Assembly (NCBI GenBank): GCA_964016885.1
Contig: OZ024758.1
Location: forward strand, 5,704,001-5,768,000
Reading direction: 5' to 3'
DNA: 64,000 bases
Source of the DNA: Eledone cirrhosa
Taxonomy: Eukaryota
Shown: piece by piece, positions 2,114-51,809 of the stretch
Layout of the letters: the number at the start of each line of letters is the position of its first letter
Numbering within the stretch: the stretch's first letter is position 1
Program-made: the position numbers and the translations under genes
The notes under the pieces: generated by a model
What the model was told of the DNA's origin: nothing
Seen by the model: the letters and a program-made list of their open reading frames with translations, nothing else
The model's database searches: none

Positions 2114-2468
2114 CCTGTCTACCTGTCTATCTATCTATCTATCTATCTATCTACCTGTCTACCTGTCTATCTATCTATCTATCTATCAACCTTTCATCCT
2201 TACGGGGTCGATAAAATAAAGTAAAATAAAGTACCAGTAATGCACTGGGGTTGATTTAATCAACTTCCCTTCTCCCAAAATTGCTGGCCTTGTGCCTAAA
2301 TCAAAAACCTTTACTATCATTATGGATAATGTTGTGTATGGGTATATAAGTTCTGTGTGTAACTATGTGTGTATATAAATGTGTATTTAACATGATAGTG
2401 TATAATCTTTTTCGTTTTCTTGGCTCTATCTTCAAAATATTCCTATTAATATATTTATATTCATTTAT

Positions 2469-3597
2469 CCTAACAAAGAGACATATACACATTTCCATAA
2501 ATATATATATTTATACACCCTAACAAAGAGACATATACACATTTCCATAAATATATATATTTATACATCCTAACAAAGAGACATATACACATTTCCATAA
2601 ATATATATATTTATACATCCTAACAAAGAGACATATACACATTTCCATAAATATATATATTTATACATCCTAACAAAGAGACATATACACATTTCCATAA
2701 ATATATATATTTATACATCCTAACAAAGAGACATATACACATTTCCATAAATATATATATTTATACATCCTAACAAAGAGACATATGCACATTTCCATAA
2801 ATATATATATTTATACATCCTAACAAAGAGACATATACACATTTCCATAAATATATATATTTATACATCCTAACAAAGAGACATATACACATTTCCATAA
2901 ATATATATATTTATACATCCTAACAAAGAGACATATACACATTTCCATAAATATATATATTTATACATCCTAACAAAGAGACATATACACATTTCCATAA
3001 ATATATATATTTATACATCCTAACAAAGAGACATATACACATTTCCATAAATATATATATTTATACATCCTAACAAAGAGACATATACACATTTCCATAA
3101 ATATATATATTCATTTATCCTAACAAAGAGACATATACACATTTCCATAAATATATATATTTATACATCCTAACAAAGAGACATATACACATTTCCATAA
3201 ATATATATATTTATACATCCTAACAAAGAGACATATACACATTTCCATAAATATATATATTTATACATCCTAACAAAGAGACATATGCACATTTCCATAA
3301 ATATATATATTTATACATCCTAACAAAGAGACATATACACATTTCCATAAATATATATATTTATACACCCTAACAAAGAGACATATACACATTTCCATAA
3401 ATATATATATTTATACATCCTAACAAAGAGACATATACACATTTCCATAAATATATATATTTATACACCCTAACAAAGAGACATATACACATTTCCATAA
3501 ATATATATATTTATACATCCTAACAAAGAGACATATACACATTTCCATAAATATATATATTTATACATCCTAACAAAGAGACATATACACACATTTC
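2469..3597. repeat. Tandem array, 50-bp unit, about 22 copies
   Basis: Unit cctaacaaagagacatatacacatttccataaatatatatatttatacat, almost invariant. Confidence 0.97.
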
Positions 3598-17899: not shown

Positions 17900-18261
17900 A
17901 ACACCATCACAAAGCGTTAGGGCAGCAGTGTTCTGTAAGCCCTTCTTCAGAGTTTTAGAAATGTCTTTGCCAACATACATACAATCAGGTACATTCAAAT
18001 GTAATGCTGTACCATTTCCAACAATGTCCGTGTGTGTTCCACGATGTCGTTTCCAGTGATAAACTTTAAAACCCGGAGCTAATAAATCAACATTAGGTTT
18101 CAATTTAAAATGGTAGCTGTTGTTGAAGCCATTAATTTGCAAATATAAAGCAGAGTTTTGTTTTGTGTTTTTTGTGCTTCTTTTCTTTCGTGATAGGTGA
18201 ACATCATGTGACTGAATGATACCTTGGTAATCCACAAAGAATGGGTAGGTTACCTCATAAT
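17900..18261 (-). CDS. Exon encoding the prodomain of an ADAMTS-type (M12B/reprolysin) metalloprotease
   Basis: Translation (D)YEVTYPFFVDYQG..SHDVHLSRKKRS..LYLQINGFNNSYHFKLKPNVDLLAPGFKV..CMYVG..AALTLCDGV fits the reprolysin propeptide pattern, with an RKKR furin-type site. Bounded by a polypyrimidine tract/tttttag acceptor (phase 1) and a GTT|gtaagt donor (phase 0). The paralogue cannot be assigned. Confidence 0.88.
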
Positions 18262-33878: not shown

Positions 33879-35512
33879 AACAAGAAGAACAAGAAAAACA
33901 AGAAGAAGAAGAAGACGACTATTTATTTCATTCATTGGTGAATGAAAAGGAAATTGGTCCTGAGCGGAATTTGAACTCAGAACATAAAGAAAGGTGAAGG
34001 TACACCACACTGTCTGTTGTCAGACGTTCATTACAAATATTGCCACATCGTGTTTTTCAGGCCGTCGGATATAATTTAAGAAAAGCCCGAGCTGCTCTGG
34101 TATGGCAGGTACGAGAGAAGAGCAAGGTTAAACATGGAATATAATATTGCCTGGTTTTATGATTTCAGATCCCATTGAAGCCTCGTGTGCTTACATGATT
34201 CTATTAGTTTTGAATTCTGTTCTAAGCCGAAAGCTCATCAAGCCGGTGTTTATTCCCGGTTCTTTGGTGCTAAGCGACTGAGAGTACAAGACTCTCTCAG
34301 GATAAGACGCCAGTCTATCGCAGGTTTAACTCCCCAGCTAATGCTGCTACTCACTCATCTCGGCTGAGTGTACGGGAGCAACCTGAAATAAAGAATTTTA
34401 CTCAAGAACACAGCGCAGTAGCTTGTCCAGGAACCGGGCCGACGATATTACGATCCTATGACAAACATCCTAATCTTTAGGGATTGCGCCTTCACATAAT
34501 TCTAGGGAGTCCATAAATATGTACATGCTAGACATATAGTGAGAATGATGCAATGGATTCGAGCTTTTCCGTTAGCGCCATTGCGTAATATTAAGAAGTG
34601 GTTAGTAAATAAAGGTTTAAAGTTTTGAAGAGAGAGAAAATAGCTGCTGTACAACATAGAAAGATACATAGTATAGCTTTTAGGTATATACTGATAGAGA
34701 GAGATAGTATTGATTGAAACTGGTGATGAATGAAGTGTAGGTGAAGTAGAAGGGGGAGATAGATAGGAAGTGGGGGTGGGTAGAGATGTAGATAAAAGAA
34801 TAAACAGATACAAAAACAGATGTGTGCTTTTGAGTAACTATGTATATGTGTGTGTGTGTGTGTTTACATACATATACACACTACACACTACACATACACA
34901 CTACACATACACGCTACACCCCACACGCTACACATACACACATACACATACATACACACACACACAGAATGACTACAATGCAAGGCCGTTTATTTCATTC
35001 AGTAAGTTTTAGTGGCAGGGGACGGGGACAATATATAAAAACATCATCCAGAAGGAAATGGCAAAGAACCGCCTAAAGAATGAAATAGACAAAAAATGTG
35101 TAAATATTCTTCATTCGGAATAGTTTTTTGGTGTTCCAATTTTTTTTTCTTCGTGGCTTGAAATCGTGTTAGGGAGAAATGTTAAATAGATTTTTTTCCC
35201 AGTTGCCAAAAAAAAACCCATCTCCAAAAAACCGCAATAATAATAATAATAATGATTTCATTTATTGGCCACAAGGGCCGACATATAGGGGACAACACAA
35301 TAGACAGGGACAGTGGGGGTTTACATAGAGATCGAGTAAGTATAAATAACAAAAAAACAAAAACAAAATAACAATAAAAATACAACAATGAAAGTTCCCC
35401 AATAAGAGGGATCACCACCCAGGGTTGACTCAAGCACCCCACCAGTCCTGAGCCACCCGACGCTCCTAGGGCACCCGGGAAGGGCACCCCTCTCCTTCTC
35501 GAATTCACCAGC

Positions 35513-38500
35513 CTACAGGCGCATGATCAGAGTAGGCCCACTCACGCGGGCCATTCTCGCCACATTCACCCACCTTTCAGTAAATGTACTGGGGGGCAGC
35601 ACTTCTCTCTCCACCCTCACCTTCCTTTCCAAGTGAAACTTGAAGAAGTTGATGAGGGATTGGCCGAAGAGAAAAGTGTCTGTCTTCAGTCCTTTCAACC
35701 TGGTCCACCATGCAACCTCTTTCGCTACTGCCACCAGGCAGAGGAAAATTGCCTGCCCTTCCTGACCAAAAGAAGGCGGCGGGTCAATCTTCACTATGGA
35801 CTCGGACGATAGCCGGATCCGTTCTACACGCGACAATAGCTGTTCGACATAACCCCACAAGTCAGCAATGCACGGACACTGGACGAGTGCGTGCAGAACG
35901 GTTTCGTCGCTCTGCGCGCATCTCGGGCAGGTTCGTCTGACAGCACTTCCGTGCCTGTAGAGTTTATCCCGAACCGGCAGCGCCCCCCGGTAGCACTGCC
36001 AAGCGAGGGATTTCTGGAAGTTATCCATCGTCCCCGGCTCGAAAGTCCTCCGGAACATACTGGTCAGTTCTACTTCGTTGACGCCCAGAGCCTCTCCTAG
36101 TACGTCATCGCACTTGCCCTCCACTAATCCTCTATAGAAATCTTGAGTGGAAGTTCCACTGACCGCATTGCCCACCTTGCAGAGTGCAGTGAGCGCCTGG
36201 CAACATTCCAGATGCCAGTCGCCCAGTCTCGGTCTCTTCTTGACCCAGGACTGCAGCTCAGTCAAAGAGATGAGCTGCGGAAAGGCCCGTCTAACAAACG
36301 GCGACCACACCTGTTCACCGTTTAGGCAAAATATCTGGAGATGTCGCAGCCTCAGCGCATGTCTGCGCATCATTAGCCACGGCATGCCCAGCCCTCCACG
36401 AAGAGGGTGCTGGCAGCAGATGGACCGCCTCACCAACGGGACCCGTCCCCTCCACAAAAATTTGAAAAGGAGCCGTTCCAAATTGGCGAGGCGTGGACGG
36501 GGGCAAGGCACGACGGTCAGGCGGTAGTAGATGACGGACGCGATGTACGCGTTCGCCACCTCCGCCCGCCCTTTCAGTGATAGCTTTCTCTCAGCCCATT
36601 TCTGGGTGAGGTTGGCTATCCTGCTCGTCACCTCGTCCCAATTCTTATCCACCTGGAGGTCTGGTCCGAACCAAACCCCGAGCAACTTTACCGGTCCGTC
36701 TGTCCAGCGCCCAACGACGCTGTTGGACGGCATGGACTTGCCTCTCCAGGTGCCGAGCTGCAAGCCCACCGACTTTTCCGGGTTAAGTTTTGCTCCCGTC
36801 AACCTTTCATATTCCTCCAAATGGGTGCGGATCACCTCGATTTCCGAGGTGTCCGACACCATCACGGTGATGTCGTCCGCATAAGCGGACGCAGCCTTTC
36901 TACGTCCCGGTTCGAGCGGGATGCCCTGCAACAACTCCAGCTTCCGCAGTAGAGGCTCAAGAGTCAATACGTACAGAAGTGAGGAGAGAGGGCACCCTTG
37001 ACGGACCGATCGAGAGATCTGAAACGGTTCCGAGAGGTGGCCATTAACTTTGACCACCGAGCGGATGCCGCTGTACATTGCAGCGATCCAGCTTCTGTAG
37101 ACGGGGCCGAAGCCAGCCGCCTCGAGGACAGCCTCCAAGTACCGATGGTCGACCCTATCGAATGCTTTCGATTGATCTAAATTGATCAGAGCCCCACCGA
37201 AGCCAGGTTTGCACCCAACCCTCTCTATGATGTATCGCATGAGGTGGAGGTTGTCGTGTATGGACCTGGTCGGGATTGCGCAAGTTTGCGCCTCCCCAAC
37301 CAAATCCTCGACGACAAGCGCCAACCTTTTCGCTAACACCTTGGCCAAAATCTTAAACTCTGTGTTGAGCAGGGTTATGGGCCTGAAATTATCTAGTGTG
37401 TCCCTCTTGTTCTCGTCTTTCCTTATCAGCGTCACTACGCCACGGCTCACAGAACTGGGAATGCTCCCGTTCTGCTGCCAGTTGCAGTAGAGCGCTTCGA
37501 GGAGATCGGAGAACAAGTCTGGCATATTTACGTAAAGCTCGTAGGGCAGACCATCCAAACCGGGTGACTTGCGACTCGAGCAGCCGACAAGGGCGTCCTG
37601 AATTTCGGCTGATGTTATCGGCTCTTCGCAGCGCTCAGCGTCGGCCGTCGAGAGGCGTGGCAAGCCGTCGAGGTAGGGACTGAAGTCCGCCGCCGTCTCC
37701 GACTCACCCATCCTCCCGAACAATCGAGCAAAGTGCTGGCGAAAGGCCTCACACATCTGCTTGGAATCGCTCAGTTCGTGTCCATCTCGATCCGTCAAAG
37801 ACCGAATTGTGGTTTTATTTCCACGCTGCGTCTCTGCAAAGCGAGCCCATCGGGCAGCTTTGGTTCCCTCGTTCCTCAGAGCACGCGCCTTAGCTCTGAC
37901 AATGCAACCTTCGTGTTTCGCATTGAAGAAATGGTCTAGTGCCATTCTCGCCGCTAGCACGTCTGTTGCAATGCCACTACAAATAGCCTCGTCTAACTTA
38001 GCTATCAGCCCCTCCTCCTTTCTATTTTTCTCTATTGCTACTTCTTTGCTAAATCCTATCGAGGTTGCTCTAATCTCTCTTTTGAGTGCCCCCCACCACC
38101 TGTTGTTGACAACCCCCCCTGTCAACTTTTGCTTAACTAAGTTGTTGACCCGGTCCCTGTAAGCTTTACGTGCCGGAAACGACATGTTTAGCTTCCAGTA
38201 GCTAGGTCCTAACCTACGTGTCTTATCTAGGTCGACCATACAGATCACAAGCTTGTGATCTGAATAGGCAACCGTTTTAAAATGTGGACATCCTACACTA
38301 TTTCTATCTCTTTTCCTAATGAAAATCCTATCTATGTACGATCTAGATGACCCTATGCGATTGGTCCAGGTCCATACTGGCGCATTAGGGAAATCTAGTC
38401 GGTACCTGTCAGACAGTTGAAACTGGCTGATCAGGTACTTGAGGCTTTTGCACCCCCCGCTCCTATCAGATACTCCCACACAATCCCAGCGTGCTTCTAA

Positions 38501-38932
38501 GATGCCATTCCAATCCCCTATTAACAGTAAAGGGCGAGACGTAAGCAGAAAGTTTTCCAGGCGCCTAAAGAAGTCCGGCCGACCGGCCCCAGTAGGGGCG
38601 TAGACGGCCACCAGTCTAAAGGCACCACCTTCGCTATTGCTCACGTCCAGGACCACCAACTTTCCGTCAGGATCCCGGAAGATTGACCTTACCTCGAGAT
38701 CCAGACATTTCCTAAACAGCACAGCCACTCCACCTCCCATTCCCGGCCGACTAACAGATGCAAAGATCTGATAATCGTCGAAAATCGGCGCCAGTGCGCG
38801 TGTGTCGGAAATTCTGGTCTCGCTGATGGCAATTACATCCATTCCTAGTGACCTGAGGTCGTTGAGCAAGTGACCTTGCTTCCAGGGCGACCCCAGGCCA
38901 CGAACATTTAAACTTCCTACTCTTATGGCCAT
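35513..38932 (-). CDS. Tx1-type ORF2p: APE endonuclease, reverse transcriptase and C-terminal zinc motif, copy A, 1139 aa
   Basis: APE motifs GSLNVRGL, ISETR, IGDWN, YIDRIF, YSDH. RT motifs SPGLDG, NFRPITLLN, LDQSKAFDRVDH, VRQGCPLS, YADD. C-terminal CPRC..ETVLHALVQC. Uninterrupted. Confidence 0.97.
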   Translation of the reverse strand: MAIRVGSLNVRGLGSPWKQGHLLNDLRSLGMDVIAISETRISDTRALAPIFDDYQIFASVSRPGMGGGVAVLFRKCLDLEVRSIFRDPDGKLVVLDVSNSEGGAFRLVAVYAPTGAGRPDFFRRLENFLLTSRPLLLIGDWNGILEARWDCVGVSDRSGGCKSLKYLISQFQLSDRYRLDFPNAPVWTWTNRIGSSRSYIDRIFIRKRDRNSVGCPHFKTVAYSDHKLVICMVDLDKTRRLGPSYWKLNMSFPARKAYRDRVNNLVKQKLTGGVVNNRWWGALKREIRATSIGFSKEVAIEKNRKEEGLIAKLDEAICSGIATDVLAARMALDHFFNAKHEGCIVRAKARALRNEGTKAARWARFAETQRGNKTTIRSLTDRDGHELSDSKQMCEAFRQHFARLFGRMGESETAADFSPYLDGLPRLSTADAERCEEPITSAEIQDALVGCSSRKSPGLDGLPYELYVNMPDLFSDLLEALYCNWQQNGSIPSSVSRGVVTLIRKDENKRDTLDNFRPITLLNTEFKILAKVLAKRLALVVEDLVGEAQTCAIPTRSIHDNLHLMRYIIERVGCKPGFGGALINLDQSKAFDRVDHRYLEAVLEAAGFGPVYRSWIAAMYSGIRSVVKVNGHLSEPFQISRSVRQGCPLSSLLYVLTLEPLLRKLELLQGIPLEPGRRKAASAYADDITVMVSDTSEIEVIRTHLEEYERLTGAKLNPEKSVGLQLGTWRGKSMPSNSVVGRWTDGPVKLLGVWFGPDLQVDKNWDEVTSRIANLTQKWAERKLSLKGRAEVANAYIASVIYYRLTVVPCPRPRLANLERLLFKFLWRGRVPLVRRSICCQHPLRGGLGMPWLMMRRHALRLRHLQIFCLNGEQVWSPFVRRAFPQLISLTELQSWVKKRPRLGDWHLECCQALTALCKVGNAVSGTSTQDFYRGLVEGKCDDVLGEALGVNEVELTSMFRRTFEPGTMDNFQKSLAWQCYRGALPVRDKLYRHGSAVRRTCPRCAQSDETVLHALVQCPCIADLWGYVEQLLSRVERIRLSSESIVKIDPPPSFGQEGQAIFLCLVAVAKEVAWWTRLKGLKTDTFLFGQSLINFFKFHLERKVRVEREVLPPSTFTERWVNVARMARVSGPTLIMRL

Positions 38933-38961
38933 GCTGGCAGGATGAATGGGAGAGGAAAGGT

Positions 38962-40824
38962 TTACTTACCTTCCGGGGTCTTGTGAAGGTCGGGTGGTTC
39001 GACCTCCATGGTTTGTGGGGTTTCTTTTGGGAACCCCTTTAATAGTCTTGACGTGGGTTTTACGTTCGGGGTTCCCACATCCCGAGGAAAGCTCTTTCGA
39101 ATTTCTTTGTATGAAGCGAGCGACATTCGCATCAGAAGCAAATTATCTGGTACGCGAAATGTGCTCGCTTCAAATGTTTCCCCGTCTTTTTCGATGTTTG
39201 TGCTTCGTGCTACATGGGCCATCAATTCCTTGTTGGCCCTTCTGGCAAGCACGAAGTTTTTAATGTTTTGTTGCTCGGGTTTTATTTGTTCGTGTGATTG
39301 TGGTGGTGATAGCTTTGTTAGTGTTGTTTCTATTGTGTCTGCGTTTGTTGTGGGTGGGGTGTCTGTAGTTTCTGATGTTTGTGTGTCTATTTGTTCTTGT
39401 GTCTGTTTAGCTTGTTTGCGTTTGGGGGATTTTGGTGGTTGTGTTGGTGATGCTGTGGGGAAAATGTTTGTGTGGGTGGTGTGTGTATTTTTTTTTGTGG
39501 GGGTGTTTGTGCTTTGTGGATTTCTTTTTTTTTTGTGTTTTGTTTTTTGTATTTTGGGGGACTTTGGTTTTCCCTCATCTTCACTGCTGGAGGATGAGGG
39601 GTCTGTGGCTGTGAGCGTGTTTGTGTCTGAGTGAGTGTTTATGTTCTTGTTCGTGTGTGTATTTTGGGGGGGAGGGGGAATGGGAGAGCTTTCCTCGTTT
39701 CCCCCCTGGGTGTGCAATTTTGGTGGTTCCATTGTTGACGGTGTTGCTGGTGGTCCTTGTCCCGGCGTCGCCAGCAGTGGAATCTTTCGACCCCTTGCGC
39801 TTTTCGGCAGTTGAGGGCAGAAGGCTCGCAAGTGTGTCGTTTCCCCACAAAGGAAACAATGCGGCCTTTTGCCCTCAGTCATTATATGCAACACCCTCCC
39901 GTTTTGGAGGCGGATGTGGTCCGGGATTGTTTTTACGTTTTCGGGTCTGATTTGGAGCAGTATCTCCAGATCAACCCCGGACCAGTCGTCCCTGGCAGTT
40001 CTCGTTGCCTCTACCGGGACTGTATCCGTTCCTTCCACGATTACGCAACCCAGGAGCCACCACATATCAAGTCCTGGTGGAATCCTGGGAATGCGCACAC
40101 GTGCTATTCGTTTTCCCATGTGGGAGGGGTACATTATGACCTTGCTGGTTTTGCAAGGGGTCATTGAATGCTTCACAGCGAGGGCTTCAGACTTGAACAG
40201 CACCGAAACGGTGCCGTATTGCCTGCCCCTCTCTATGAAGTCTGTGTCCTCTCTGATGTATTTCAGTGCGGCTTCTATGTCAGCTTGGGCGATTATCGCT
40301 GCCCTCTTTGTCTCTACTGAGATGCATCTGAAATGCACCGTTCTTTTTTCCACTGCCTCAATGGCTTCTGCCGGGACAGTTAAGTTTGCCCAGGTCTGCT
40401 CTTGGTTTATGATTTTCCAGGCCTGGGCCAACTTTTCCTCTCTGTTGGTTAAGTCGATGCTGTAGCATGGTCTCCTTTTAGCCGCTGCCACAGCAGCGAA
40501 AGTGTTCTTGTTGGTGTTGTCACTGTTGTTGTTCTTGTTGGTGTTGCTGCTGCTATTGCTGTTGTTGTTCTCCCCTGTGTCGTGGTTACCTTCTGTGCTG
40601 TTGGCCTTGTTGGTGCTCTCGCTATTACCACCTTCTGCGCTGTTCGGCTTGTTGGTGTTGGTGTTGTCGCTGTTACCACCTTCCGCGCCGCTCGGCCCGT
40701 TGGTGCTGGCACTGTCGCTGCTCACATTCGTGCTGGTGGCGCTCCTCGCCTCACCTCTCCTCTCAACGCTCAAGTCGCCGTTGCACGACAGCAGACCCGC
40801 CTCTAGGGGGCGTGGCTCCGCCAT
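38962..40824 (-). CDS. Tx1-type ORF1p (gag-like nucleic-acid-binding protein), copy A, 620 aa
   Basis: ATG at 40824 matches the copy B start (the track starts upstream at a non-ATG codon). N/S/T-rich N-terminus, CCHC knuckle CFLCGETTHLRAFC, K/T/P-rich tail. Confidence 0.9.
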   Translation of the reverse strand: MAEPRPLEAGLLSCNGDLSVERRGEARSATSTNVSSDSASTNGPSGAEGGNSDNTNTNKPNSAEGGNSESTNKANSTEGNHDTGENNNSNSSSNTNKNNNSDNTNKNTFAAVAAAKRRPCYSIDLTNREEKLAQAWKIINQEQTWANLTVPAEAIEAVEKRTVHFRCISVETKRAAIIAQADIEAALKYIREDTDFIERGRQYGTVSVLFKSEALAVKHSMTPCKTSKVIMYPSHMGKRIARVRIPRIPPGLDMWWLLGCVIVEGTDTVPVEATRTARDDWSGVDLEILLQIRPENVKTIPDHIRLQNGRVLHIMTEGKRPHCFLCGETTHLRAFCPQLPKSARGRKIPLLATPGQGPPATPSTMEPPKLHTQGGNEESSPIPPPPQNTHTNKNINTHSDTNTLTATDPSSSSSEDEGKPKSPKIQKTKHKKKRNPQSTNTPTKKNTHTTHTNIFPTASPTQPPKSPKRKQAKQTQEQIDTQTSETTDTPPTTNADTIETTLTKLSPPQSHEQIKPEQQNIKNFVLARRANKELMAHVARSTNIEKDGETFEASTFRVPDNLLLMRMSLASYKEIRKSFPRDVGTPNVKPTSRLLKGFPKETPQTMEVEPPDLHKTPEGK

Positions 40825-41058
40825 GTTTTTTTTGAGAAAAAAATTATTATTTTTTTCAAAATAAAGTTCAAATATTTGGGCCAAAAGGCCCAAATATTAT
40901 GAGTTATTCCTTCACAGGATACAAATTAATGTCTTATAATGCTTCAGCGGTACAAAAAATAAACAATTCTCTACAATTAATCCTCAAAAATTGCTTACTC
41001 ACGGAGCTTCAAAAAACGTACATCCACTTTCGTCAATAATAATAATAATAATAATAAT

Positions 41059-41245
41059 AATTGTTTCTACGTTAGGCACAAGGCCAGCAAATATCCCAGT
41101 GTATTACTGGTACTTTATTTTATCGACCCCCGTAAGGATGAAAGGCAAAGTTGACCTCGGCGGGATTTGAACTGAGATCGTAAAGGGCCGTAACTCTATG
41201 CTTCAAAGAATAGCGTCCGACTCTCTACCGATACTGCCAATCCTA
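41059..41245 (-). mobile_element. SINE S1 whose (ATT)n tail abuts the 5' end of Tx1 copy A
   Basis: Complete S1 with (AAT)n on both sides. Confidence 0.85.
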
Positions 41246-41250
41246 CACCC

Positions 41251-41288
<38 letters not shown>

Positions 41289-41851
41289 GTAATAGTGATA
41301 ATGATGATGATGATGATGATAAACTAGATGTACTTTTATGCCAGAGTTTATTTTAAATTGTAGTCTACTTGACTGTATCCATACACGAAACGGTTGCGGG
41401 TATATTCACCTTATATAATATCTAGGAAATAACTTATTAATGCACACAAGCGTATGTACACACATACATATATAGACATACATACACACATGCATTTGTA
41501 CATACATACACACATGCATTTGTACATACATACACACATGCATTTGTACATACATACATACACACATGATCAGTGGATGGGTGCTACACGAGAATGCTGA
41601 GGATGCAAAAATAAACCTCATTTGGCCATTCCATGAGAGTATCTTGGTCAGACTATGAAGGAGTGATGCTAGAGCTGTGAAATCTTAAATGGATTAATTT
41701 CAACTCTTCTTATTAATACCTGCTTTGTTTATTTCCAGAGACTATGTTGAAAAATAAATCTCATTTGGTCATTAAATGGCGTATCGAAAGCTGGCGTAGT
41801 TAAATATTTCCCAAGGACACCTAAAATCATCAAAGGAGTTCGATCACTTAC

Positions 41852-41927
41852 CTTGTACATGATTGCTTCCAGGAATGCCATAAGCATGTAAAACTGTCAA
41901 TACTCCAATCAACCATATTGGTAAAAC
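41852..41927 (-). CDS. 76-nt exon encoding a signal-peptide-like segment of the same ADAMTS-type gene
   Basis: tttcttcttcctccag|GTT..CAAG|gtaagt. Translates VLPIWLIGVLTVLHAYGIPGSNHVQ+G (hydrophobic core, A-Y-G cleavage-like site). The final G joins AT of the 18261 exon to give in-frame GAT (D). No in-frame ATG, so an upstream coding exon is needed. Confidence 0.72.
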
Positions 41928-42057
41928 CTGGAGGAAGAAGAAAGTAAGAAAGATTTTAAAAACATTTAAATTATTGGTTTATTATTTTATTAATATATTT
42001 AATTTTTGTTAAAATAATTAATATAGTTAATATACGAGCCTCTCAGGAATAAGTGAG

Positions 42058-42343
42058 CGAAAAAGAAGAAAAAGAAAAAAGAAAAAGAAAAAGAAAAAGA
42101 AGAAAAAGAAAAAGAAAAAGAAAAAGAGAAAAAAGAAAAAGAAAAAGAAAAAGAAAAAGAAAAAGAAAAAGAAAAAGAAAAAAAAGAAAAAGAACGAAAG
42201 GAAAGAGAAAAAGAAGAAAAAGAAGAATAAGAAAAAGAAGAAAAATAAAAAATAAAAATAAAAAATAAGAAAAAGAAGAGGAAAAAGAAGAAGAAAAAGA
42301 AGAAGAGAAAGAAGAAGAGAAAGAAGAAAAAGAAAAAAAAAAA
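42058..42343. repeat. (GAAAAA/GAA)n purine tract
   Basis: Direct reading; begins at an RTE-like 3' tip. Confidence 0.9.
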
Positions 42344-43083
42344 GCTATAAAGGTTAATTATATATAATTAGCTCTTTTTATTAACCTTTATAATTAATGT
42401 ATAATTATATCCTACAACACCACAGACCATATGAAATAATTATCTTTGTGTATATAAATCTATTTAGTTTTGATAAAGTGTTGCCTAGATATTCAGCACG
42501 CTCTAAATCCCCAACGGATGTGATATTTTAAGTCTCTTTCAAGTTCATTAATTGAATGAGTTTAGACATTTGTAACGATCGTATCTTTTTCAAGTAATAA
42601 AAGCCGAGTAATTAAATTTATGAATGACAAAAGAATATAGAAAGTATGTGTGTCAGGGCATGTGTTTATGTTTATATCAGTGTATACATTTGTGTTAGCA
42701 TAGGTGGGATATTACGAATTCCCTTAATGAGGGCGCGTGACTTAGTGATTAGAGCGTCGGATTCTCAATCGTGACGTTGTGAATTCCATTCCAGGGCCGA
42801 GCGGTGCGTTGTGTTCTCGAACAAGACACTTTATTTCACCTTGCTCCAGTTTACTCAGTTGTAGAAATAAGTTGTGACGTTACTGTTGCCAAGCTGTATC
42901 TGCTATTGCCCTTTTGCCTTGGACAACATCGTGTCTGTGGAATGCTCAGCCACTTGCACGTTAATTTCATGAGCATGCTGTTCCGTTGATCAGATCGACT
43001 GGAACATTCATCGTCGTAACCGATGGAATGCCTTTCATATATATATATATTTATATTAGTTCCACAACAGTTAGTTCACCATA

Positions 43084-43124
43084 CCTAGAACAATTGTTTC
43101 ACCTTAAGCGGATCTTCAGCTCGG
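43084..43124 (-). ncRNA. Hammerhead motif (H3) in a palindromic element (about 43058-43248)
   Basis: Minus strand reads CCGAG-CTGAAGA-tccgcttaaggt-GAAA-CAATTG-TT-CTAGG. One stem I mismatch. Confidence 0.6.
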
Positions 43125-43247
43125 TCTGTAGATCCGCATAAGGTGAAACATTTGTTCTCGGTATGGTGAACTAACAGTTGTAGACCTATTTTTACCAAAC
43201 TCGTCCCAGTGATCTACTACTACGGATATAACCCTCTAGTGTTCTAC

Positions 43248-43278
<31 letters not shown>

Positions 43279-43851
43279 ACATGTATGTTCGGACGTCACT
43301 GGTACCAAGATATATTGACCTTTGCCATTCCCTTGGACAACATCGGAGAGGGGAGTCTGGATTGCTTGGACGACGGCTGGTTTTCCACAGAAACACATTT
43401 CTTGGACTTGTGACTAGTTGGGGGAATATTTCGTGACGAAAACGGGTCTTTTTACGAAATCCTTTGACAACACCAATCTTCCGAGTTACGCCCTCCTTCT
43501 TTAATGGGAGGGAATAGTAATATCTGGTAATGAATAGTTGTTTCTTTCCATTTTCGGTGGGTGGAGGAGCTATATAATATTATTTATTTAATGTACAGAA
43601 CCCCTTAATGTTATGAAAGGTTATTGACATTATATAAAAATAACTGAGCTGTGTCTAATAAAAACAAAAAAAACAGAATCAAAGGGAACAGAAAAGGAAG
43701 GAAAAATAATATAAAGAGGAGAAAAAAAGGATCAAGCCACAAAAGAAAGGATGAGGAGGAGGGGGGGGGGGGACATCTAATACATCCTAGTCTGAGTGGT
43801 ACCTCAGCCGCGGAGAAGGGCCAGAGACAACCGCTACAACAGCCACCCCAC

Positions 43852-43891
<40 letters not shown>

Positions 43892-43967
43892 TAGATAGAT
43901 AGATAGATAGATAAATATACACGGGTGTGTATGATTGTGTATAGAAGATTATATTAATAAGAGGAAT

Positions 43968-44037
<70 letters not shown>

Positions 44038-44196
44038 ATTGTAACGTCCAGTTACTGTAGGTTCACCAGAGTGAGAACTCAATACGTAGTTTCCAGTAAA
44101 TATAGAGGTGTAGTGCCGAGCAGCGTGTAATACTAATAATAATAAAAAGGACGATTTGTTATGTCTTCATGGCCTGCGTGGTAATGACAGAATCTA

Positions 44197-44238
<42 letters not shown>

Positions 44239-44398
44239 TTGATTAACAACTCTACTGAGCAGATCGGGCCGGCGTTCGATCTCTAGTATTTACGTGGATC
44301 CTGAGCCAACGATCTGTGAATCGGTCGTAACTGTTTCACAGATAAAGACCATAATGTGAAACCTAGCTTTGTTTTTAATATATTTATATATATATATA

Positions 44399-44584
44399 TA
44401 ACAGGGAGGATGTGGTAATATACTAGAAGGACCATAACGCATCAGAGTACTCGATACTTCGGGTAGTAGAGTGGGTAATAGGAAAAGAGTCAGGACTCGA
44501 CCGCTGAGCTCCGGCCGTTTCGACAGCTGAAATAGCTGTCGAAACGGCCGGAGCTCAGCCGTCGGGGTCCTGACTCTTTTCCTA
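44399..44584. mobile_element. H4 palindromic element
   Basis: Same structure; lies in the spacer between the Tx1 copies. Confidence 0.75.
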
Positions 44585-44943
44585 TATATATATATATATA
44601 TATAGTGTGTGTGTGTGAGTGTATGGGTGTATGTGTGTGTATGTGTAGGTCTATATGTGCGTGTGCATGTGTATATGCGTGTATAATAATATGTATACGT
44701 ACATTAAAACGGCACGCGCATAAAGATTTATATAAAACTCTGTGTAAAAACAAAAGTTCATTTCTCAGAAAGTACACGCAGCATATCTCTGTACATATCG
44801 GCTGAACACGTGCAAACCATATGTTTGGAATGGGAGAATGGAGGGTGTGTGGGATCGCGAAGAAAGCATAAGGTGAAGAATATATACTGTTCAATGTGAA
44901 GATATGGCTGTTTTAATGTAACATCTGTTGAATAAATTCTTTA

Positions 44944-44974
<31 letters not shown>

Positions 44975-45184
44975 GACGAAAGTGGATGTACGTTTTTTGA
45001 AGCTCCGTGAGTAAGCAATTTTTGAGGATTAATTGTAGAGAATTGTTTATTTTTTTGTACCGCTGAAGCATTATAAGACATTAATTTGTATCCTGTGAAG
45101 GAATAACTCATAATATTTGGGCCTTTTGGCCCAAATATTTGAACTTTATTTTGAAAAAAATAATAATTTTTTTCTCAAAAAAAC

Positions 45185-47095
45185 ATGGCGGAGCTACGCC
45201 CCCTAGAGGCGGGTCTGCTGTCGTGCAACGGCGACTTGAGCGTTGAGAGGAGAGGTGAGGCGAGGAGCGCCACCAGCACGAATGTGAGCAGCGACAGTGC
45301 CAGCACCAACGGGCCGAGCGGCGCGGAAGGTGGTAACAGCGACAACACCAACACCAACAAGCCGAACAGCGCAGAAGGTGGTAATAGCGAGAGCACCAAC
45401 AAAACGAACAGCACAGAGAGTAATAGTAGCGACAGCAACAGCACCAACAAGGCCAACAGCACAGAGGGTAACCACGACACAGGGGAGAACAACAACAGCA
45501 ATAGCAGCAGCAACACCAACAAGAACAACAACAGTGACAACACCAACAAGAACACTTTCGCTGCTGTGGCAGCGGCTAAAAGGAGACCATGCTACAGCAT
45601 CGACTTAACCAACAGAGAGGAAAAGTTGGCCCAGGCCTGGAAAATCATAAATCAAGAGCAGACCTGGGCAAACTTAACTGTCCCGGCAGAAGCCATTGAG
45701 GCAGTGGAAAAAAGAACGGTGCATTTCAGATGCATCTCAGTAGAGACAAAGAGGGCAGCGATAATCGCCCAAGCTGACATAGAAGCCGCACTGAAATACA
45801 TCAGAGAGGACACAGACTTCATAGAGAGGGGCAGGCAATACGGCACCGTTTCGGTGCTGTTCAAGTCTGAAGCCCTCGCTGTGAAGCATTCAATGACCCC
45901 TTGCAAAACCAGCAAGGTCATAATGTACCCCTCCCACATGGGAAAACGAATAGCACGTGTGCGCATTCCCAGGATTCCACCAGGACTTGATATGTGGTGG
46001 CTCCTGGGTTGCGTAATCGTGGAAGGAACGGATACAGTCCCGGTAGAGGCAACGAGAACTGCCAGGGACGACTGGTCCGGGGTTGATCTGGAGATACTGC
46101 TCCAAATCAGACCCGAAAACGTAAAAACAATCCCGGACCACATCCGCCTCCAAAACGGGAGGGTGTTGCATATAATGACTGAGGGCAAAAGGCCGCATTG
46201 TTTCCTTTGTGGGGAAACGACACACTTGCGAGCCTTCTGCCCTCAACTGCCGAAAAGCGCAAGGGGTCGAAAGATTCCACTGCTGGCGACGCCGGGACAA
46301 GGACCACCAGCAACACCGTCAACAATGGAACCACCAAAATTGCACACCCAGGGGGGAAACGAGGAAAGCTCTCCCATTCCCCCTCCCCCCCAAAATACAC
46401 ACACGAACAAGAACATAAACACTCACTCAGACACAAACACGCTCACAGCCACAGACCCCTCATCCTCCAGCAGTGAAGATGAGGGAAAACCAAAGTCCCC
46501 CAAAATACAAAAAACAAAACACAAAAAAAAAAGAAATCCACAAAGCACAAACACCCCCACAAAAAAAAATACACACACCACCCACACAAACATTTTCCCC
46601 ACAGCATCACCAACACAACCACCAAAATCCCCCAAACGCAAACAAGCTAAACAGACACAAGAACAAATAGACACACAAACATCAGAAACTACAGACACCC
46701 CACCCACAACAAACGCAGACACAATAGAAACAACACTAACAAAGCTATCACCACCACAATCACACGAACAAATAAAACCCGAGCAACAAAACATTAAAAA
46801 CTTCGTGCTTGCCAGAAGGGCCAACAAGGAATTGATGGCCCATGTAGCACGAAGCACAAACATCGAAAAAGACGGGGAAACATTTGAAGCGAGCACATTT
46901 CGCGTACCAGATAATTTGCTTCTGATGCGAATGTCGCTCGCTTCATACAAAGAAATTCGAAAGAGCTTTCCTCGGGATGTGGGAACCCCGAACGTAAAAC
47001 CCACGTCAAGACTATTAAAGGGGTTCCCAAAAGAAACCCCACAAACCATGGAGGTCGAACCACCCGACCTTCACAAGACCCCGGAAGGTAAGTAA
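45185..47095 (+). CDS. Tx1-type ORF1p, copy B, 636 aa
   Basis: As copy A plus a 16-aa extra N-terminal repeat unit; CCHC knuckle present. Confidence 0.9.
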   Translation: MAELRPLEAGLLSCNGDLSVERRGEARSATSTNVSSDSASTNGPSGAEGGNSDNTNTNKPNSAEGGNSESTNKTNSTESNSSDSNSTNKANSTEGNHDTGENNNSNSSSNTNKNNNSDNTNKNTFAAVAAAKRRPCYSIDLTNREEKLAQAWKIINQEQTWANLTVPAEAIEAVEKRTVHFRCISVETKRAAIIAQADIEAALKYIREDTDFIERGRQYGTVSVLFKSEALAVKHSMTPCKTSKVIMYPSHMGKRIARVRIPRIPPGLDMWWLLGCVIVEGTDTVPVEATRTARDDWSGVDLEILLQIRPENVKTIPDHIRLQNGRVLHIMTEGKRPHCFLCGETTHLRAFCPQLPKSARGRKIPLLATPGQGPPATPSTMEPPKLHTQGGNEESSPIPPPPQNTHTNKNINTHSDTNTLTATDPSSSSSEDEGKPKSPKIQKTKHKKKRNPQSTNTPTKKNTHTTHTNIFPTASPTQPPKSPKRKQAKQTQEQIDTQTSETTDTPPTTNADTIETTLTKLSPPQSHEQIKPEQQNIKNFVLARRANKELMAHVARSTNIEKDGETFEASTFRVPDNLLLMRMSLASYKEIRKSFPRDVGTPNVKPTSRLLKGFPKETPQTMEVEPPDLHKTPEGK

Positions 47096-47124
47096 ACCTT
47101 TCCTCTCCCATTCATCCTGCCAGC

Positions 47125-50100
47125 ATGGCCATAAGAGTAGGAAGTTTAAATGTTCGTGGCCTGGGGTCGCCCTGGAAGCAAGGTCACTTGCTCAACGACC
47201 TCAGGTCACTAGGAATGGATGTAATTGCCATCAGCGAGACCAGAATTTCCGACACACGCGCACTGGCGCCGATTTTCGACGATTATCAGATCTTTGCATC
47301 TGTTAGTCGGCCGGGAATGGGAGGTGGAGTGGCTGTGCTGTTTAGGAAATGTCTGGATCTCGAGGTAAGGTCAATCTTCCGGGATCCTGACGGAAAGTTG
47401 GTGGTCCTGGACGTGAGCAATAGCGAAGGTGGTGCCTTTAGACTGGTGGCCGTCTACGCCCCTACTGGGGCCGGTCGGCCGGACTTCTTTAGGCGCCTGG
47501 AAAACTTTCTGCTTACGTCTCGCCCTTTACTGTTAATAGGGGATTGGAATGGCATCTTAGAAGCACGCTGGGATTGTGTGGGAGTATCTGATAGGAGCGG
47601 GGGGTGCAAAAGCCTCAAGTACCTGATCAGCCAGTTTCAACTGTCTGACAGGTACCGACTAGATTTCCCTAATGCGCCAGTATGGACCTGGACCAATCGC
47701 ATAGGGTCATCTAGATCGTACATAGATAGGATTTTCATTAGGAAAAGAGATAGAAATAGTGTAGGATGTCCACATTTTAAAACGGTTGCCTATTCAGATC
47801 ACAAGCTTGTGATCTGTATGGTCGACCTAGATAAGACACGTAGGTTAGGACCTAGCTACTGGAAGCTAAACATGTCGTTTCCGGCACGTAAAGCTTACAG
47901 GGACCGGGTCAACAACTTAGTTAAGCAAAAGTTGACAGGGGGGGTTGTCAACAACAGGTGGTGGGGGGCACTCAAAAGAGAGATTAGAGCAACCTCGATA
48001 GGATTTAGCAAAGAAGTAGCAATAGAGAAAAATAGAAAGGAGGAGGGGCTGATAGCTAAGTTAGACGAGGCTATTTGTAGTGGCATTGCAACAGACGTGC
48101 TAGCGGCGAGAATGGCACTAGACCATTTCTTCAATGCGAAACACGAAGGTTGCATTGTCAGAGCTAAGGCGCGTGCTCTGAGGAACGAGGGAACCAAAGC
48201 TGCCCGATGGGCTCGCTTTGCAGAGACGCAGCGTGGAAATAAAACCACAATTCGGTCTTTGACGGATCGAGATGGACACGAACTGAGCGATTCCAAGCAG
48301 ATGTGTGAGGCCTTTCGCCAGCACTTTGCTCGATTGTTCGGGAGGATGGGTGAGTCGGAGACGGCGGCGGACTTCAGTCCCTACCTCGACGGCTTGCCAC
48401 GCCTCTCGACGGCCGACGCTGAGCGCTGCGAAGAGCCGATAACATCAGCCGAAATTCAGGACGCCCTTGTCGGCTGCTCGAGTCGCAAGTCACCCGGTTT
48501 GGATGGTCTGCCCTACGAGCTTTACGTAAATATGCCAGACTTGTTCTCCGATCTCCTCGAAGCGCTCTACTGCAACTGGCAGCAGAACGGGAGCATTCCC
48601 AGTTCTGTGAGCCGTGGCGTAGTGACGCTGATAAGGAAAGACGAGAACAAGAGGGACACACTAGATAATTTCAGGCCCATAACCCTGCTCAACACAGAGT
48701 TTAAGATTTTGGCCAAGGTGTTAGCGAAAAGGTTGGCGCTTGTCGTCAAAGATTTGGTTGGGGAGGCGCAAACTTGCGCAATCCCGACCAGGTCCATACA
48801 CGACAACCTCCACCTCATGCGATACATCATAGAGAGGGTTGGGTGCAAACCTGGCTTCGGTGGGGCTCTGATCAATTTAGATCAATCGAAAGCATTCGAT
48901 AGGGTCGACCATCGGTACTTGGAGGCTGTCCTCGAGGCGGCTGGCTTCGGCCCCGTCTTCAGAAGCTGGATCGCTGCAATGTACAGCGGCATCCGCTCGG
49001 TGGTCAAAGTTAATGGCCACCTCTCGGAACCGTTTCAGATCTCTCGATCGGTCCGTCAAGGGTGCCCTCTCTCCTCACTTCTGTACGTATTGACTCTTGA
49101 GCCTCTACTGCGGAAGCTGGAGTTGTTGCAGGGCATCCCGCTCGAACCGGGACGTAGAAAGGCTGCGTCCGCTTATGCGGACGACATCACCGTGATGGTG
49201 TCGGACACCTCGGAAATCGAGGTGATCCGCACCCATTTGGAGGAATATGAAAGGTTGACGGGAGCAAAACTTAACCCGGAAAAGTCGGTGGGCTTGCAGC
49301 TCGGCACCTGGAGAGGCAAGTCCATGCCGTCCAACAGCGTCGTTGGGCGCTGGACAGACGGACCGGTAAAGTTGCTCGGGGTTTGGTTCGGACCAGACCT
49401 CCAGGTGGATAAGAATTGGGACGAGGTGACGAGCAGGATAGCCAACCTCACCCAGAAATGGGCTGAGAGAAAGCTATCACTGAAAGGGCGGGCGGAGGTG
49501 GCGAACGCGTACATCGCGTCCGTCATCTCCTACCGCCTGACCGTCGTGCCTTGCCCCCGTCCACGCCTCGCCAATTTGGAACGGCTCCTTTTCAAATTTT
49601 TGTGGAGGGGACGGGTCCCGTTGGTGAGGCGGTCCATCTGCTGCCAGCACCCTCTTCGTGGAGGGCTGGGCATGCCGTGGCTAATGATGCGCAGACATGC
49701 GCTGAGGCTGCGACATCTCCAGATATTTTGCCTAAACGGTGAACAGGTGTGGTCGCCGTTTGTTAGACGGGCCTTTCCGCAGCTCATCTCTTTGACTGAG
49801 CTGCAGTCCTGGGTCAAGAAGAGACCGAGACTGGGCGACTGGCATCTGGAATGTTGCCAGGCGCTCACTGCACTCTGCAAGGTGGGCAATGCGGTCAGTG
49901 GAACTTCCACTCAAGATTTCTATAGAGGATTAGTGGAGGGCAAGTGCGATGACGTACTAGGAGAGGCTCTGGGCGTCAACGAAGTAGAACTGACCAGTAT
50001 GTTCCGGAGGACTTTCGAGCCGGGGACGATGGATAACTTCCAGAAATCCCTCGCTTGGCAGTGCTACCGGGGGGCGCTGCCGGTTCGGGATAAACTCTAC

Positions 50101-50544
50101 AGGCACGGAAGTGCTGTCAGACGAACCTGCCCGAGATGCGCGCAGAGCGACGAAACCGTTCTGCACGCACTCGTCCAGTGTCCGTGCATTGCTGACTTGT
50201 GGGGTTATGTCGAACAGCTATTGTCGCGTGTAGAACGGATCCGGCTATCGTCCGAGTCCATAGTGAAGATTGACCCGCCGCCTTCTTTTGGTCAGGAAGG
50301 GCAGGCAATTTTCCTCTGCCTGGTGGCAGTAGCGAAAGAGGTTGCATGGTGGACCAGGTTGAAAGGACTGAAGACAGACACTTTTCTCTTCGGCCAATCC
50401 CTCATCAACTTCTTCAAGTTTCACTTGGAAAGGAAGGTGAGGGTGGAGAGAGAAGTGCTGCCCCCCAGTACATTTACTGAAAGGTGGGTGAATGTGGCGA
50501 GAATGGCCCGCGTGAGTGGGCCTACTCTGATCATGCGCCTGTAG
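47125..50544 (+). CDS. Tx1-type ORF2p (APE-RT-zinc motif), copy B, 1139 aa
   Basis: Same motifs as copy A. I saw three amino-acid differences (E/K, Y/F, Y/S). Confidence 0.97.
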   Translation: MAIRVGSLNVRGLGSPWKQGHLLNDLRSLGMDVIAISETRISDTRALAPIFDDYQIFASVSRPGMGGGVAVLFRKCLDLEVRSIFRDPDGKLVVLDVSNSEGGAFRLVAVYAPTGAGRPDFFRRLENFLLTSRPLLLIGDWNGILEARWDCVGVSDRSGGCKSLKYLISQFQLSDRYRLDFPNAPVWTWTNRIGSSRSYIDRIFIRKRDRNSVGCPHFKTVAYSDHKLVICMVDLDKTRRLGPSYWKLNMSFPARKAYRDRVNNLVKQKLTGGVVNNRWWGALKREIRATSIGFSKEVAIEKNRKEEGLIAKLDEAICSGIATDVLAARMALDHFFNAKHEGCIVRAKARALRNEGTKAARWARFAETQRGNKTTIRSLTDRDGHELSDSKQMCEAFRQHFARLFGRMGESETAADFSPYLDGLPRLSTADAERCEEPITSAEIQDALVGCSSRKSPGLDGLPYELYVNMPDLFSDLLEALYCNWQQNGSIPSSVSRGVVTLIRKDENKRDTLDNFRPITLLNTEFKILAKVLAKRLALVVKDLVGEAQTCAIPTRSIHDNLHLMRYIIERVGCKPGFGGALINLDQSKAFDRVDHRYLEAVLEAAGFGPVFRSWIAAMYSGIRSVVKVNGHLSEPFQISRSVRQGCPLSSLLYVLTLEPLLRKLELLQGIPLEPGRRKAASAYADDITVMVSDTSEIEVIRTHLEEYERLTGAKLNPEKSVGLQLGTWRGKSMPSNSVVGRWTDGPVKLLGVWFGPDLQVDKNWDEVTSRIANLTQKWAERKLSLKGRAEVANAYIASVISYRLTVVPCPRPRLANLERLLFKFLWRGRVPLVRRSICCQHPLRGGLGMPWLMMRRHALRLRHLQIFCLNGEQVWSPFVRRAFPQLISLTELQSWVKKRPRLGDWHLECCQALTALCKVGNAVSGTSTQDFYRGLVEGKCDDVLGEALGVNEVELTSMFRRTFEPGTMDNFQKSLAWQCYRGALPVRDKLYRHGSAVRRTCPRCAQSDETVLHALVQCPCIADLWGYVEQLLSRVERIRLSSESIVKIDPPPSFGQEGQAIFLCLVAVAKEVAWWTRLKGLKTDTFLFGQSLINFFKFHLERKVRVEREVLPPSTFTERWVNVARMARVSGPTLIMRL

Positions 50545-51809
50545 GCTGGTGAATTCGAGAAGGAGAGGGGTGCCCTTCCCGGGTGCCCTAGGAGCGTCGG
50601 GTGGCTCAGGACTGGTGGGGTGCTTGAGTCAACCCTGGGTGGTGATCCCTCTTATTGGGGAACTTTCATTGTTGTATTTTTATTGTTATTTTGTTTTTGT
50701 TTTTTTGTTATTTATACTTACTCGATCTCTATGTAAACCCCCACTGTCCCTGTCTATTGTGTTGTCCCCTATATGTCGGCCCTTGTGGCCAATAAATGAA
50801 ATCATTATTATTATTATTATTATTGCTGTTGTAGTTGCTGGTGTCGTTGTTTTGATAGTGTTGGTGACCGTACATTTAGACTAGATACTTCTTACTATGA
50901 AAAGTCAGGTGCCGCCTCTTCTGAGTAAAATGACACTGAAAGGATATTTGCCTTTCATCACACTAGGTTTGATAAAATAAGTACTAGTAATATAATAGGG
51001 ATTTCATTAAATTTACTATGACACTTTTCTATATAAATCTGACCTTGCGCCTTGTAATAAACTAAGTATTATATTTATCTAGTGTCAAGATGGTGAACGA
51101 CAGAAACGTTAAACCGTCTAACAAAATGCTTTGCAGTATTTATTCTGACTATTTACGTTCTGATTTCGAGACCCGCCGAGATCAGAGTTCCCTTTCATCT
51201 TTTAAAAAGTCGATCGAATAAAAGAGCCATTCAAGGAGGTACTGGTGTCAATTCCATCGATAATCTAATCTAATCTAATCTGGCCGAGTTACACTCGCAA
51301 ATAAGAAGAACCACGGCCGCCCCTAGGAGCATTGGATTTGGTGTACTTCATATTTGTTTCGGTTGCTGAATAAAATCACGGGTCGCTGCTTCTCCTGAAG
51401 GTCAATAGTTCTCTTCTAACTCGAGCGGGAGCACCTTTCCATTGTCAATTTGCATTGATTATCCGCAAAGCCGCATTGTTCTCAGAACCACTACACCAGT
51501 CTTTCGATGCAGCTGGAACTACTGCCACCCATTGATTTGGCAGGATTTTTTTTTTAATTTAATTTTTTTTAGATGGCCGCTGACTCTTATGAGTTCTTCC
51601 GCACTTTGTCAGGCTTTGTTTTTTGTCCTGCAGGGTGTCCAAAATCACCCTCCTCACCAAGTAAACTTGGTGGGGTTGCCGGTTTAGTCGCCGACGAACC
51701 GTATGTGTGTATGTATATATATATGTATCTGTGTATATATATGTATTATATATATATGTGTGTGTATATATATATGTATTATATATATATATGTGTGTGT
51801 ATATATATA

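Follow-up and report, generated by a model that had tools for sequence, protein, structure and literature searches.

When two intact retrotransposons lie head to head around an exon of a host gene, are they a switch or an accident? This question is raised by a 64,000-nucleotide stretch of the Eledone cirrhosa genome (assembly GCA_964016885.1, contig OZ024758.1, positions 5,704,001 to 5,768,000), hereafter the window, in which a 76-nt exon of an ADAMTS16/18-like gene is bracketed by two near-identical inverted copies, A and B, of a retrotransposon of the kind that lacks long terminal repeats (non-LTR). An initial annotation had proposed that the pair could form a pre-mRNA hairpin that affects splicing and turn the exon into an invertible cassette. 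We hold with good confidence another explanation, in which a young L1-group element targeted to (ATT)n runs inserted independently and recently in introns 1 and 2 of the gene, and exon 2 is mostly included. The pair is therefore likely to be a chance arrangement, not a switch.

Two near-identical retrotransposons in inverted orientation bracket an exon

Self-BLAST of the window, which contains no N, gave one long inverted match, 35236-41061 against 50821-44948, with 99.03% identity over 5,875 columns, gaps counted. Within it, copy A (35254-41034, minus strand), in host intron 2, is a full-length 5,781-nt element of the L1 group (Tx1-like) with the sense orientation of the host gene; copy B (44975-50803, plus strand), likewise full-length at 5,829 nt, lies antisense to the gene in its intron 1. 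Their 5' ends face each other across a spacer of 3,940 nt. Both open reading frames (ORFs) are free of stops in both copies: ORF1 encodes 620 residues in A (38962-40824, minus) and 636 in B (45185-47095, plus), and ORF2 encodes 1,139 residues in each (35513-38932, minus, and 47125-50544, plus), with only three residues differing between the two ORF2 products. The self-match, the open ORFs and the length of the spacer bear out the annotated arrangement of two intact, full-length inverted copies 3.94 kb apart. Exact alignment of A and B revealed seven substitutions and three indels, so that the arms are 99.9% complementary outside the indels. The annotated counts of about seven substitutions and one 48-bp indel, which falls in a repetitive part of ORF1 and leaves A with the short allele, both hold; two 1-bp homopolymer indels in the 5' untranslated region (UTR) had gone unlisted.

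Read along the element strand, each copy has ATT runs on both sides, with nine 5' and six 3' units for A and ten and seven for B. The (ATT)9 ahead of the 5' end of A (41035-41061, minus) is the tail of a dispersed, high-copy repeat of ~200 nt (41062-41251, minus) located between ATT runs, which resembles a short interspersed element (SINE), and (ATT)6 (35236-35253, minus) stands past its 3' end, after an AATAAA signal. B is preceded by (ATT)10 (44945-44974, plus) and followed by (ATT)7 (50804-50824, plus). The target runs of the two copies have opposite orientations.

Could one of the two be a product of misassembly, or have arisen from the other by local inverted duplication? Short-read contigs do break inside the repeat, which speaks for it. 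Against this, A and B carry different lineage markers, each seen in other genomic copies; their flanks and ATT run lengths differ; the inverted match goes no further than the ATT runs; and the ratio of element to unique contig depth in run X1 (~1,940/6.6) agrees roughly with the 316 family copies in the assembly. We consider this alternative very improbable. As far as sequence can tell, the inverted near-identical pair around exon 41852-41927 is confirmed as a real feature of the assembly.

The bracketed exon belongs to an ADAMTS16/18-like gene

The bracketed exon (41852-41927, minus strand; 76 nt, phase 0 to phase 1) is host coding exon 2. It has AG/GTAAGT borders and aligns with residues 13-37 of an ADAMTS16-like protein of Octopus bimaculoides; its hydrophobic stretch and its orthologues indicate that it likely encodes the core of a signal peptide. 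Coding exon 3 (17900-18261, minus), which encodes the ADAMTS prodomain, is 75% identical to the same protein. The best genomic matches to this protein form a single exon series on C19, open to residue 1217 and including the HEIGH motif. By its prodomain, zinc-binding metalloprotease, thrombospondin repeats and orthology, the host qualifies as an intact, single-copy ADAMTS16/18-like gene.

Among the 23 sequencing runs listed, which offer contigs or short restriction site-associated DNA (RAD-seq) reads and of which none is recorded as RNA, run X6 gave a contig of 4,003 nt (depth 23.5) whose match is precisely the 76-nt exon, with no differences, and which is long enough for the entire coding sequence. 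On one side of the match its loose end reads into the exon at 18261, from that exon's start, and on the other side into an upstream exon, whose 30-mer has a single exact match in the 3.0-Gb genome, at G000:C19:5,846,552. This places coding exon 1, outside the window, at G000:C19:5,846,550-5,846,585, with 12 codons from ATG followed by GTAAGT; it is 91.7 kb past copy B, and 100,622 nt separate it from exon 2 downstream. Exon 1 was located through this loose end only, since a search of the window and 200 kb upstream by likeness to the first 12 residues of the orthologue gave no convincing match. We treated X6 as RNA because its contig skips introns, the kind of run not being recorded; its sample code differs from those of X1-X3, which are DNA runs, and such contigs drop minor forms. 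Intron 1, of which 41928-64000 (minus) lies in the window, spans ~100.6 kb in all, a length that is approximate because of a 200-N assembly gap between copy B and exon 1 (G000:C19 ~5,830,372-5,830,571). Old fragments of related elements were seen ~73 kb and ~108 kb past the end of the window.

Since the X6 contig joins exons 1, 2 and 3, both A and B must lie inside one pre-mRNA. Several annotated points hold: the 76-nt exon is real, lacks an in-frame ATG and is spliced to 18261; the start of the transcript lies past copy B; and loss of the exon by skipping would shift the frame, giving a stop at codon 16. The contig shows neither a start inside the spacer nor an exon that fails to join 18261.

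The element belongs to the L1 group and is likely a member of the Tx1 clade

ORF2 matches the Pfam domains Exo_endo_phos, RVT_1 and zf-RVT with catalytic motifs present, corresponding in copy B to an apurinic-type endonuclease, a reverse transcriptase (YADD) and a C-terminal zinc finger. Its nearest relative among solved structures is human L1 ORF2p (E 4.5e-57), with R2 at E 2.9e-22. By these features the element falls in the L1 group of non-LTR retrotransposons. ORF1 has no Pfam match; it contains a CCHC knuckle (CX2CX4HX4C, at residue 339 in B), and clusters that resemble it carry zf-CCHC and ZCCHC3-type RNA-binding domains (0.89-0.92), which we regard as leads only. For comparison, type I ORF1 of the Tx1 clade has both an RNA recognition motif (RRM) and a CCHC knuckle (PMC5203782), and a family counts as target-specific when one sequence type occupies >20% of its flanks (PMC4494074); here, (ATT)3 directly precedes 310 of 316 exact 5' ends. 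The element is thus likely to belong to the Tx1 clade, as annotated, by anatomy and target specificity and not by a tree with named Tx1 elements; the name Tx1 appears in none of the 120 listed homologues or the 10 clusters looked up.

Dong, of the R4 clade, targets (TAA)n, the same microsatellite as here, and uses a restriction-like endonuclease. We rejected Dong/R4 membership for the present element, which has an N-terminal apurinic-type endonuclease and is nearest to human L1 ORF2p. Dong-R4 elements have also been recently active in octopus (PMC13282606).

A perfect splice donor-like motif overlaps the stop of ORF1 (47085-47124, and the equivalent in copy A). It is kept in 11 of 11 older relatives, with an acceptor-like AG before ORF2 in 1 of 11, and may merely reflect the last codons. 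A spliced, ORF1-only RNA starting from this motif was considered and dropped, as contig ends gave it no support.

The family is young and targeted to (ATT)n

The initial annotation overlooked two features: each copy sits in (ATT)n runs, and the pair are members of a family that numbers about 316, as counted by exact genomic matches to the first 29 nt of the element. All 30 of the 5' flanks fetched (one being that of copy B) end in ATT runs, beyond which lies varied host sequence, a SINE-like tail or the 3' end of another element, and at least two ATT units follow the 3' end in 30 of 30. Among 5'-truncated copies, the 5' junction is an ATT run or SINE-like tail in ~8 of 12, judged by eye, which suggests that the run ahead of the element belongs to the host. 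The length of the target-site duplication is unreadable because the target is a pure repeat. Both ORFs are intact in 20 of the 33 full-length copies scored, a sample that favours B-like copies and leaves out eight copies with the short ORF1 allele and one apparent recombinant, and the median pairwise difference among 41 full-length copies is 16 substitutions. The family, so far as its sequences tell, is young and aimed at (ATT)n. It also appears to be transcribed, judging from the contigs of the RNA-like run X6, in which element-derived depth (window 35266-40882) is uneven: ~190 over 38984-40140, 348 at the 3' end and 6-21 across ORF2 and the beginning of ORF1. The 1,201 exact 3' ends were rejected as a measure of the size of the young family, since most of 40 fetched 3' ends lacking a listed 5' end are older relatives of 73-92% identity.

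Other repeats use the same sites. Ends of other repeat families were seen in the same ATT runs in the 5' flanks of L003, L018 and L030 and in the 3' flanks of L038, L042, L043, L053, L036 and L054, and older relatives (~72-90% identical) directly adjoin young copies. From these sequences, several ATT-seeking families would seem to pile into one another's tails.

The young family also forms tandem arrays. Among the 100 positions listed out of 316, 17 copies lie head to tail behind another copy, the largest array having 10, and 23 of 27 array junctions examined have 5-6 ATT units. Some array neighbours share up to 22 derived sites and others none, a pattern that would fit the origin described for tandem transposon arrays in Drosophila, in which unequal exchange follows a double insertion (bioRxiv 10.1101/158386). 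The largest array, on C1 (G000:C1:423,361,000-423,421,000; L162-L167, L181), holds ten full-length copies head to tail with exactly five ATT units at 9 of 9 junctions; divergence from the family majority is 10-17 in its first six copies and 28-31 in its last four. A general polarity from young at the 5' side to old at the 3' side was rejected, as the first copy is less diverged in 7 of 13 arrays and more diverged in 6 (3 of 16 regions gave a single full copy). After the last copy of the C1 array (L162), a 36-nt inverted piece of the element's 3' end lies ~10 nt behind the 3' end and forms a small tail-to-tail palindrome.

Copies A and B are likely independent, recent insertions

Did one copy give rise to the other? 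The nearest relative of A, among 41 full-length copies, is L116 on C1, at two substitutions, with which it shares the 48-bp-short allele and three A variants; that of B, in the same set, is L119, also on C1, at four substitutions. A and B are seven substitutions apart and share no derived site. At five of the seven differing sites the rarer allele is found in copies elsewhere, two being private to A or B, and the 48-bp-short ORF1 allele occurs in at least seven other copies. Since each copy has a closer relative on another chromosome and the two share no derived sites, A and B are, on these site patterns, likely to be two independent recent insertions, neither copied from the other. Only 2 of 62 branches reach at least 95 in a tree of 66 copies, so independence rests on the site table and not on the tree. 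At the substitution rate of 0.0036 per site per million years given in PMC13282606, we infer that the insertions are ~100,000-200,000 years old or less; errors of reverse transcription would make them younger still.

What set their inverted layout? Target-primed reverse transcription predicts that the orientation of an insertion follows that of the target run, as would happen if the endonuclease nicks the AAT strand of the run. There are 14 ATT runs of at least five units in the 223-kb gene span, three of them in the spacer and two being the 3' tails of A and B. If orientation does follow the run, oppositely oriented ATT runs give an inverted layout with no further cause needed, and we consider it likely that two such runs set the layout here. 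Under uniform insertion, the expected number of inverted pairs of this family with a gap of at most 4 kb is 0.046. Neighbours at 100-250 kb are about three times as frequent as under uniformity (2 vs. 0.76; 6 vs. 1.9), and such clustering suggests an expectation of ~0.14. Drawing on the census of young long interspersed elements (LINEs) in Octopus vulgaris (PMC13282606), with assumed family sizes, the expectation per genome is 0.23-0.48 at 4 kb and 0.57-1.2 at 10 kb. Such a pair is therefore uncommon for one family and unremarkable for a genome scan.

The site patterns also bear on a cassette reading, in which recombination between A and B would flip the spacer and switch the gene off in some cells or lineages. 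Near-identical inverted arms of 5.8 kb are a substrate for ectopic recombination, and after an inversion the transcript would lack exon 2 and be out of frame. Yet no conversion or past exchange between A and B is visible in their sequences: A keeps its own lineage markers over its full length and B does so at its 5' markers, with no derived sites in common. Exon 2 sits in its working orientation, the arms are whole retrotransposons, not short recombination sites, and there is no recombinase-like ORF, the ORFs of at least 150 residues in the window being the element's own, opposite-strand frames or simple-repeat frames. Moreover, human inverted Alu pairs are depleted and their deletions have been verified, which points to damage and not to switching (PMC3215922). 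A programmed cassette is thus unsupported, and we find the idea of such a switch barely credible; an accidental A-B inversion is possible and would give a null allele.

The pair is predicted to form a long hairpin, with exon 2 probably mostly included

Since both copies lie in one pre-mRNA, the unspliced RNA is predicted to be capable of folding into a 5.8-kb hairpin. The stem would nucleate at its inner end ~820 nt after synthesis of exon 2, as transcription enters copy A, and, given usual splicing times, the arms would probably pair before splicing takes out the ~100-kb intron. The splice sites on either side of exon 2 would both stay unpaired in the 3.94-kb loop, lying outside the stem by 818 nt and 3,048 nt, and the hairpin would not bring together the skip partners, exons 1 and 3, which are 91.7 kb and 17.0 kb from the base of the stem. 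The stem would presumably serve as an ADAR substrate. The ubiquitous editing of squid lies chiefly in repeats within introns and 3' UTRs (PMC9068888), and editing of the stem, if it follows that pattern, is likely and would be confined to intron RNA. The changes found over copy A (A>G 54, T>C 55, C>T 70 and G>A 50 in X6; 63, 74, 78 and 61 in X1) are similar in the two runs and are uninformative on an intronic duplex because the contigs pool all family members at 88% likeness. Equally uninformative was a search for a joint across copy A that would mark an empty-site allele, with none among 15 joints listed and 1,293 more unlisted.

Might the accidental pair nonetheless act as a strong regulatory allele, its duplex looping out exon 2 and yielding frameshifted or circular products, heavy A-to-I editing, or small RNAs directed at the family? 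The arms are in one pre-mRNA and complementary enough to pair, and loss of exon 2 would bring the early stop noted above. In Caenorhabditis elegans, introns that match each other in complementary fashion on the two sides of an exon promote both its skipping and its back-splicing (PMC8330042), as do inverted Alus (PMC11263572), and the concentration of squid editing in intron and 3' UTR repeats (PMC9068888) also speaks for an edited duplex. The evidence from the locus itself argues the other way: the only transcript contig recovered, that of X6, includes exon 2; the splice sites and skip partners are far from the stem; and of 288 inverted matches of at least 150 nt in the gene, 21 bracket exon 2 alone, so that the exon already sits between the arms of 20 other, shorter matches. 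A single-exon circle of 76 nt would also be short for back-splicing. We judge a strong regulatory allele unlikely. Only slightly less doubtful is a probably polymorphic allele of a still-active family whose nearly perfect 5.8-kb duplex surrounds an essential signal-peptide exon and is hyper-edited in carriers, giving skipping or small RNAs that act on ~300 copies. A switch function or present effect, as annotated, finds no backing in the sole contig, the position of the splice sites or the history of A and B.

Several observations nevertheless count against the explanation that we prefer, two independent insertions that leave exon 2 mostly included. A and B are closer than most pairs of copies, 82 of 820 pairs differing by at most seven substitutions, although likeness to B guided the choice of the sample. 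For this family alone such a pair is rare: of the 316 positions, the 100 listed contain no inverted neighbours at 77 kb or less. L139, the one clearly young copy seen with a truncated 5' end, lacks an ATT run at that junction. A and B form the longest inverted match in the gene, twelve times the next (490 nt). Finally, the X6 animal may lack one or both insertions, and, since contigs drop minor forms, some skipping is possible.

On balance we still favour independent insertions with exon 2 mostly retained, the allele being likely a transient passenger, neutral to mildly harmful, for which deletion or inversion by accident would be more probable than a regulatory role. Since copy A runs in the host's sense direction and brings an AATAAA at ~35260-35267, premature polyadenylation in intron 2 is possible, independently of the hairpin. 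Short dispersed repeats with internal palindromes at 44380-44600 and 43037-43278, in the spacer, recur elsewhere in the window and are likely small DNA transposons, and a 50-bp tandem repeat (22.8 copies, 98% matches) occupies 2451-3591.

Relation to known families and inverted pairs

Microsatellite-targeted Tx1 families have been described, including Kibi at (TC)n, Koshi at (TTC)n and crocodilian families at (TTCC)n/(TTTC)n (PMC4494074), and the Tx1, R1 and early-branched groups each include elements with specific targets (PMC4640811). The present family resembles Kibi, Koshi and the crocodilian families in its L1-group, Tx1-like build and its highly specific insertion into a microsatellite. 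It differs from these in that its target is (ATT)n and its host an octopod, and its likeness to their clade is one of anatomy. In O. vulgaris, 13 recently active L1-Tx1 families account for 421 insertions (PMC13282606); these are also young, with near-full-length copies in an octopus genome, but the available text of that account contains neither a target analysis nor tandem arrays. In the main text of another paper on octopus LINEs (PMC9115989), a term search found no Tx1. We found no (ATT)n-targeted Tx1 element or cephalopod target analysis in the literature searched, which did not extend to Repbase, Kojima and Fujiwara 2004 or the supplement of PMC4494074, where one may be on record.

The tandem arrays resemble the R1 arrays of Drosophila, in which full-length elements follow one another head to tail with a little target sequence in between, some neighbours being independent and others sharing variants (bioRxiv 10.1101/158386). 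Unlike those of R1, they occur on many chromosomes, since the target is a dispersed microsatellite, and the A/B pair differs from R1 arrays in being inverted, spaced and independent.

As an accident, the pair is of a familiar type. Like inverted Alu pairs, A and B occupy the two introns beside an exon in opposite orientations and could base-pair in pre-mRNA (PMC11263572; PMC8330042) and destabilise DNA (PMC3215922). They differ from Alus in being autonomous, with nearly identical arms that stop 0.8 and 3 kb short of the splice sites. The arms are also ~20 times longer than an Alu.

What is useful here is a young octopod family that is tightly aimed at (ATT)n, keeps many copies intact and forms tandem arrays. 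An endonuclease of apurinic type directed at a simple repeat is relevant to site-directed insertion, and the family bears on how microsatellite-rich genomes absorb transposons. With its exons mapped, the locus makes the effects of a long duplex on cephalopod splicing and editing directly measurable. If the duplex does prove to be hyper-edited, animals with none, one or both insertions would provide a natural experiment on very long intronic double-stranded RNA in an editing-rich cephalopod.

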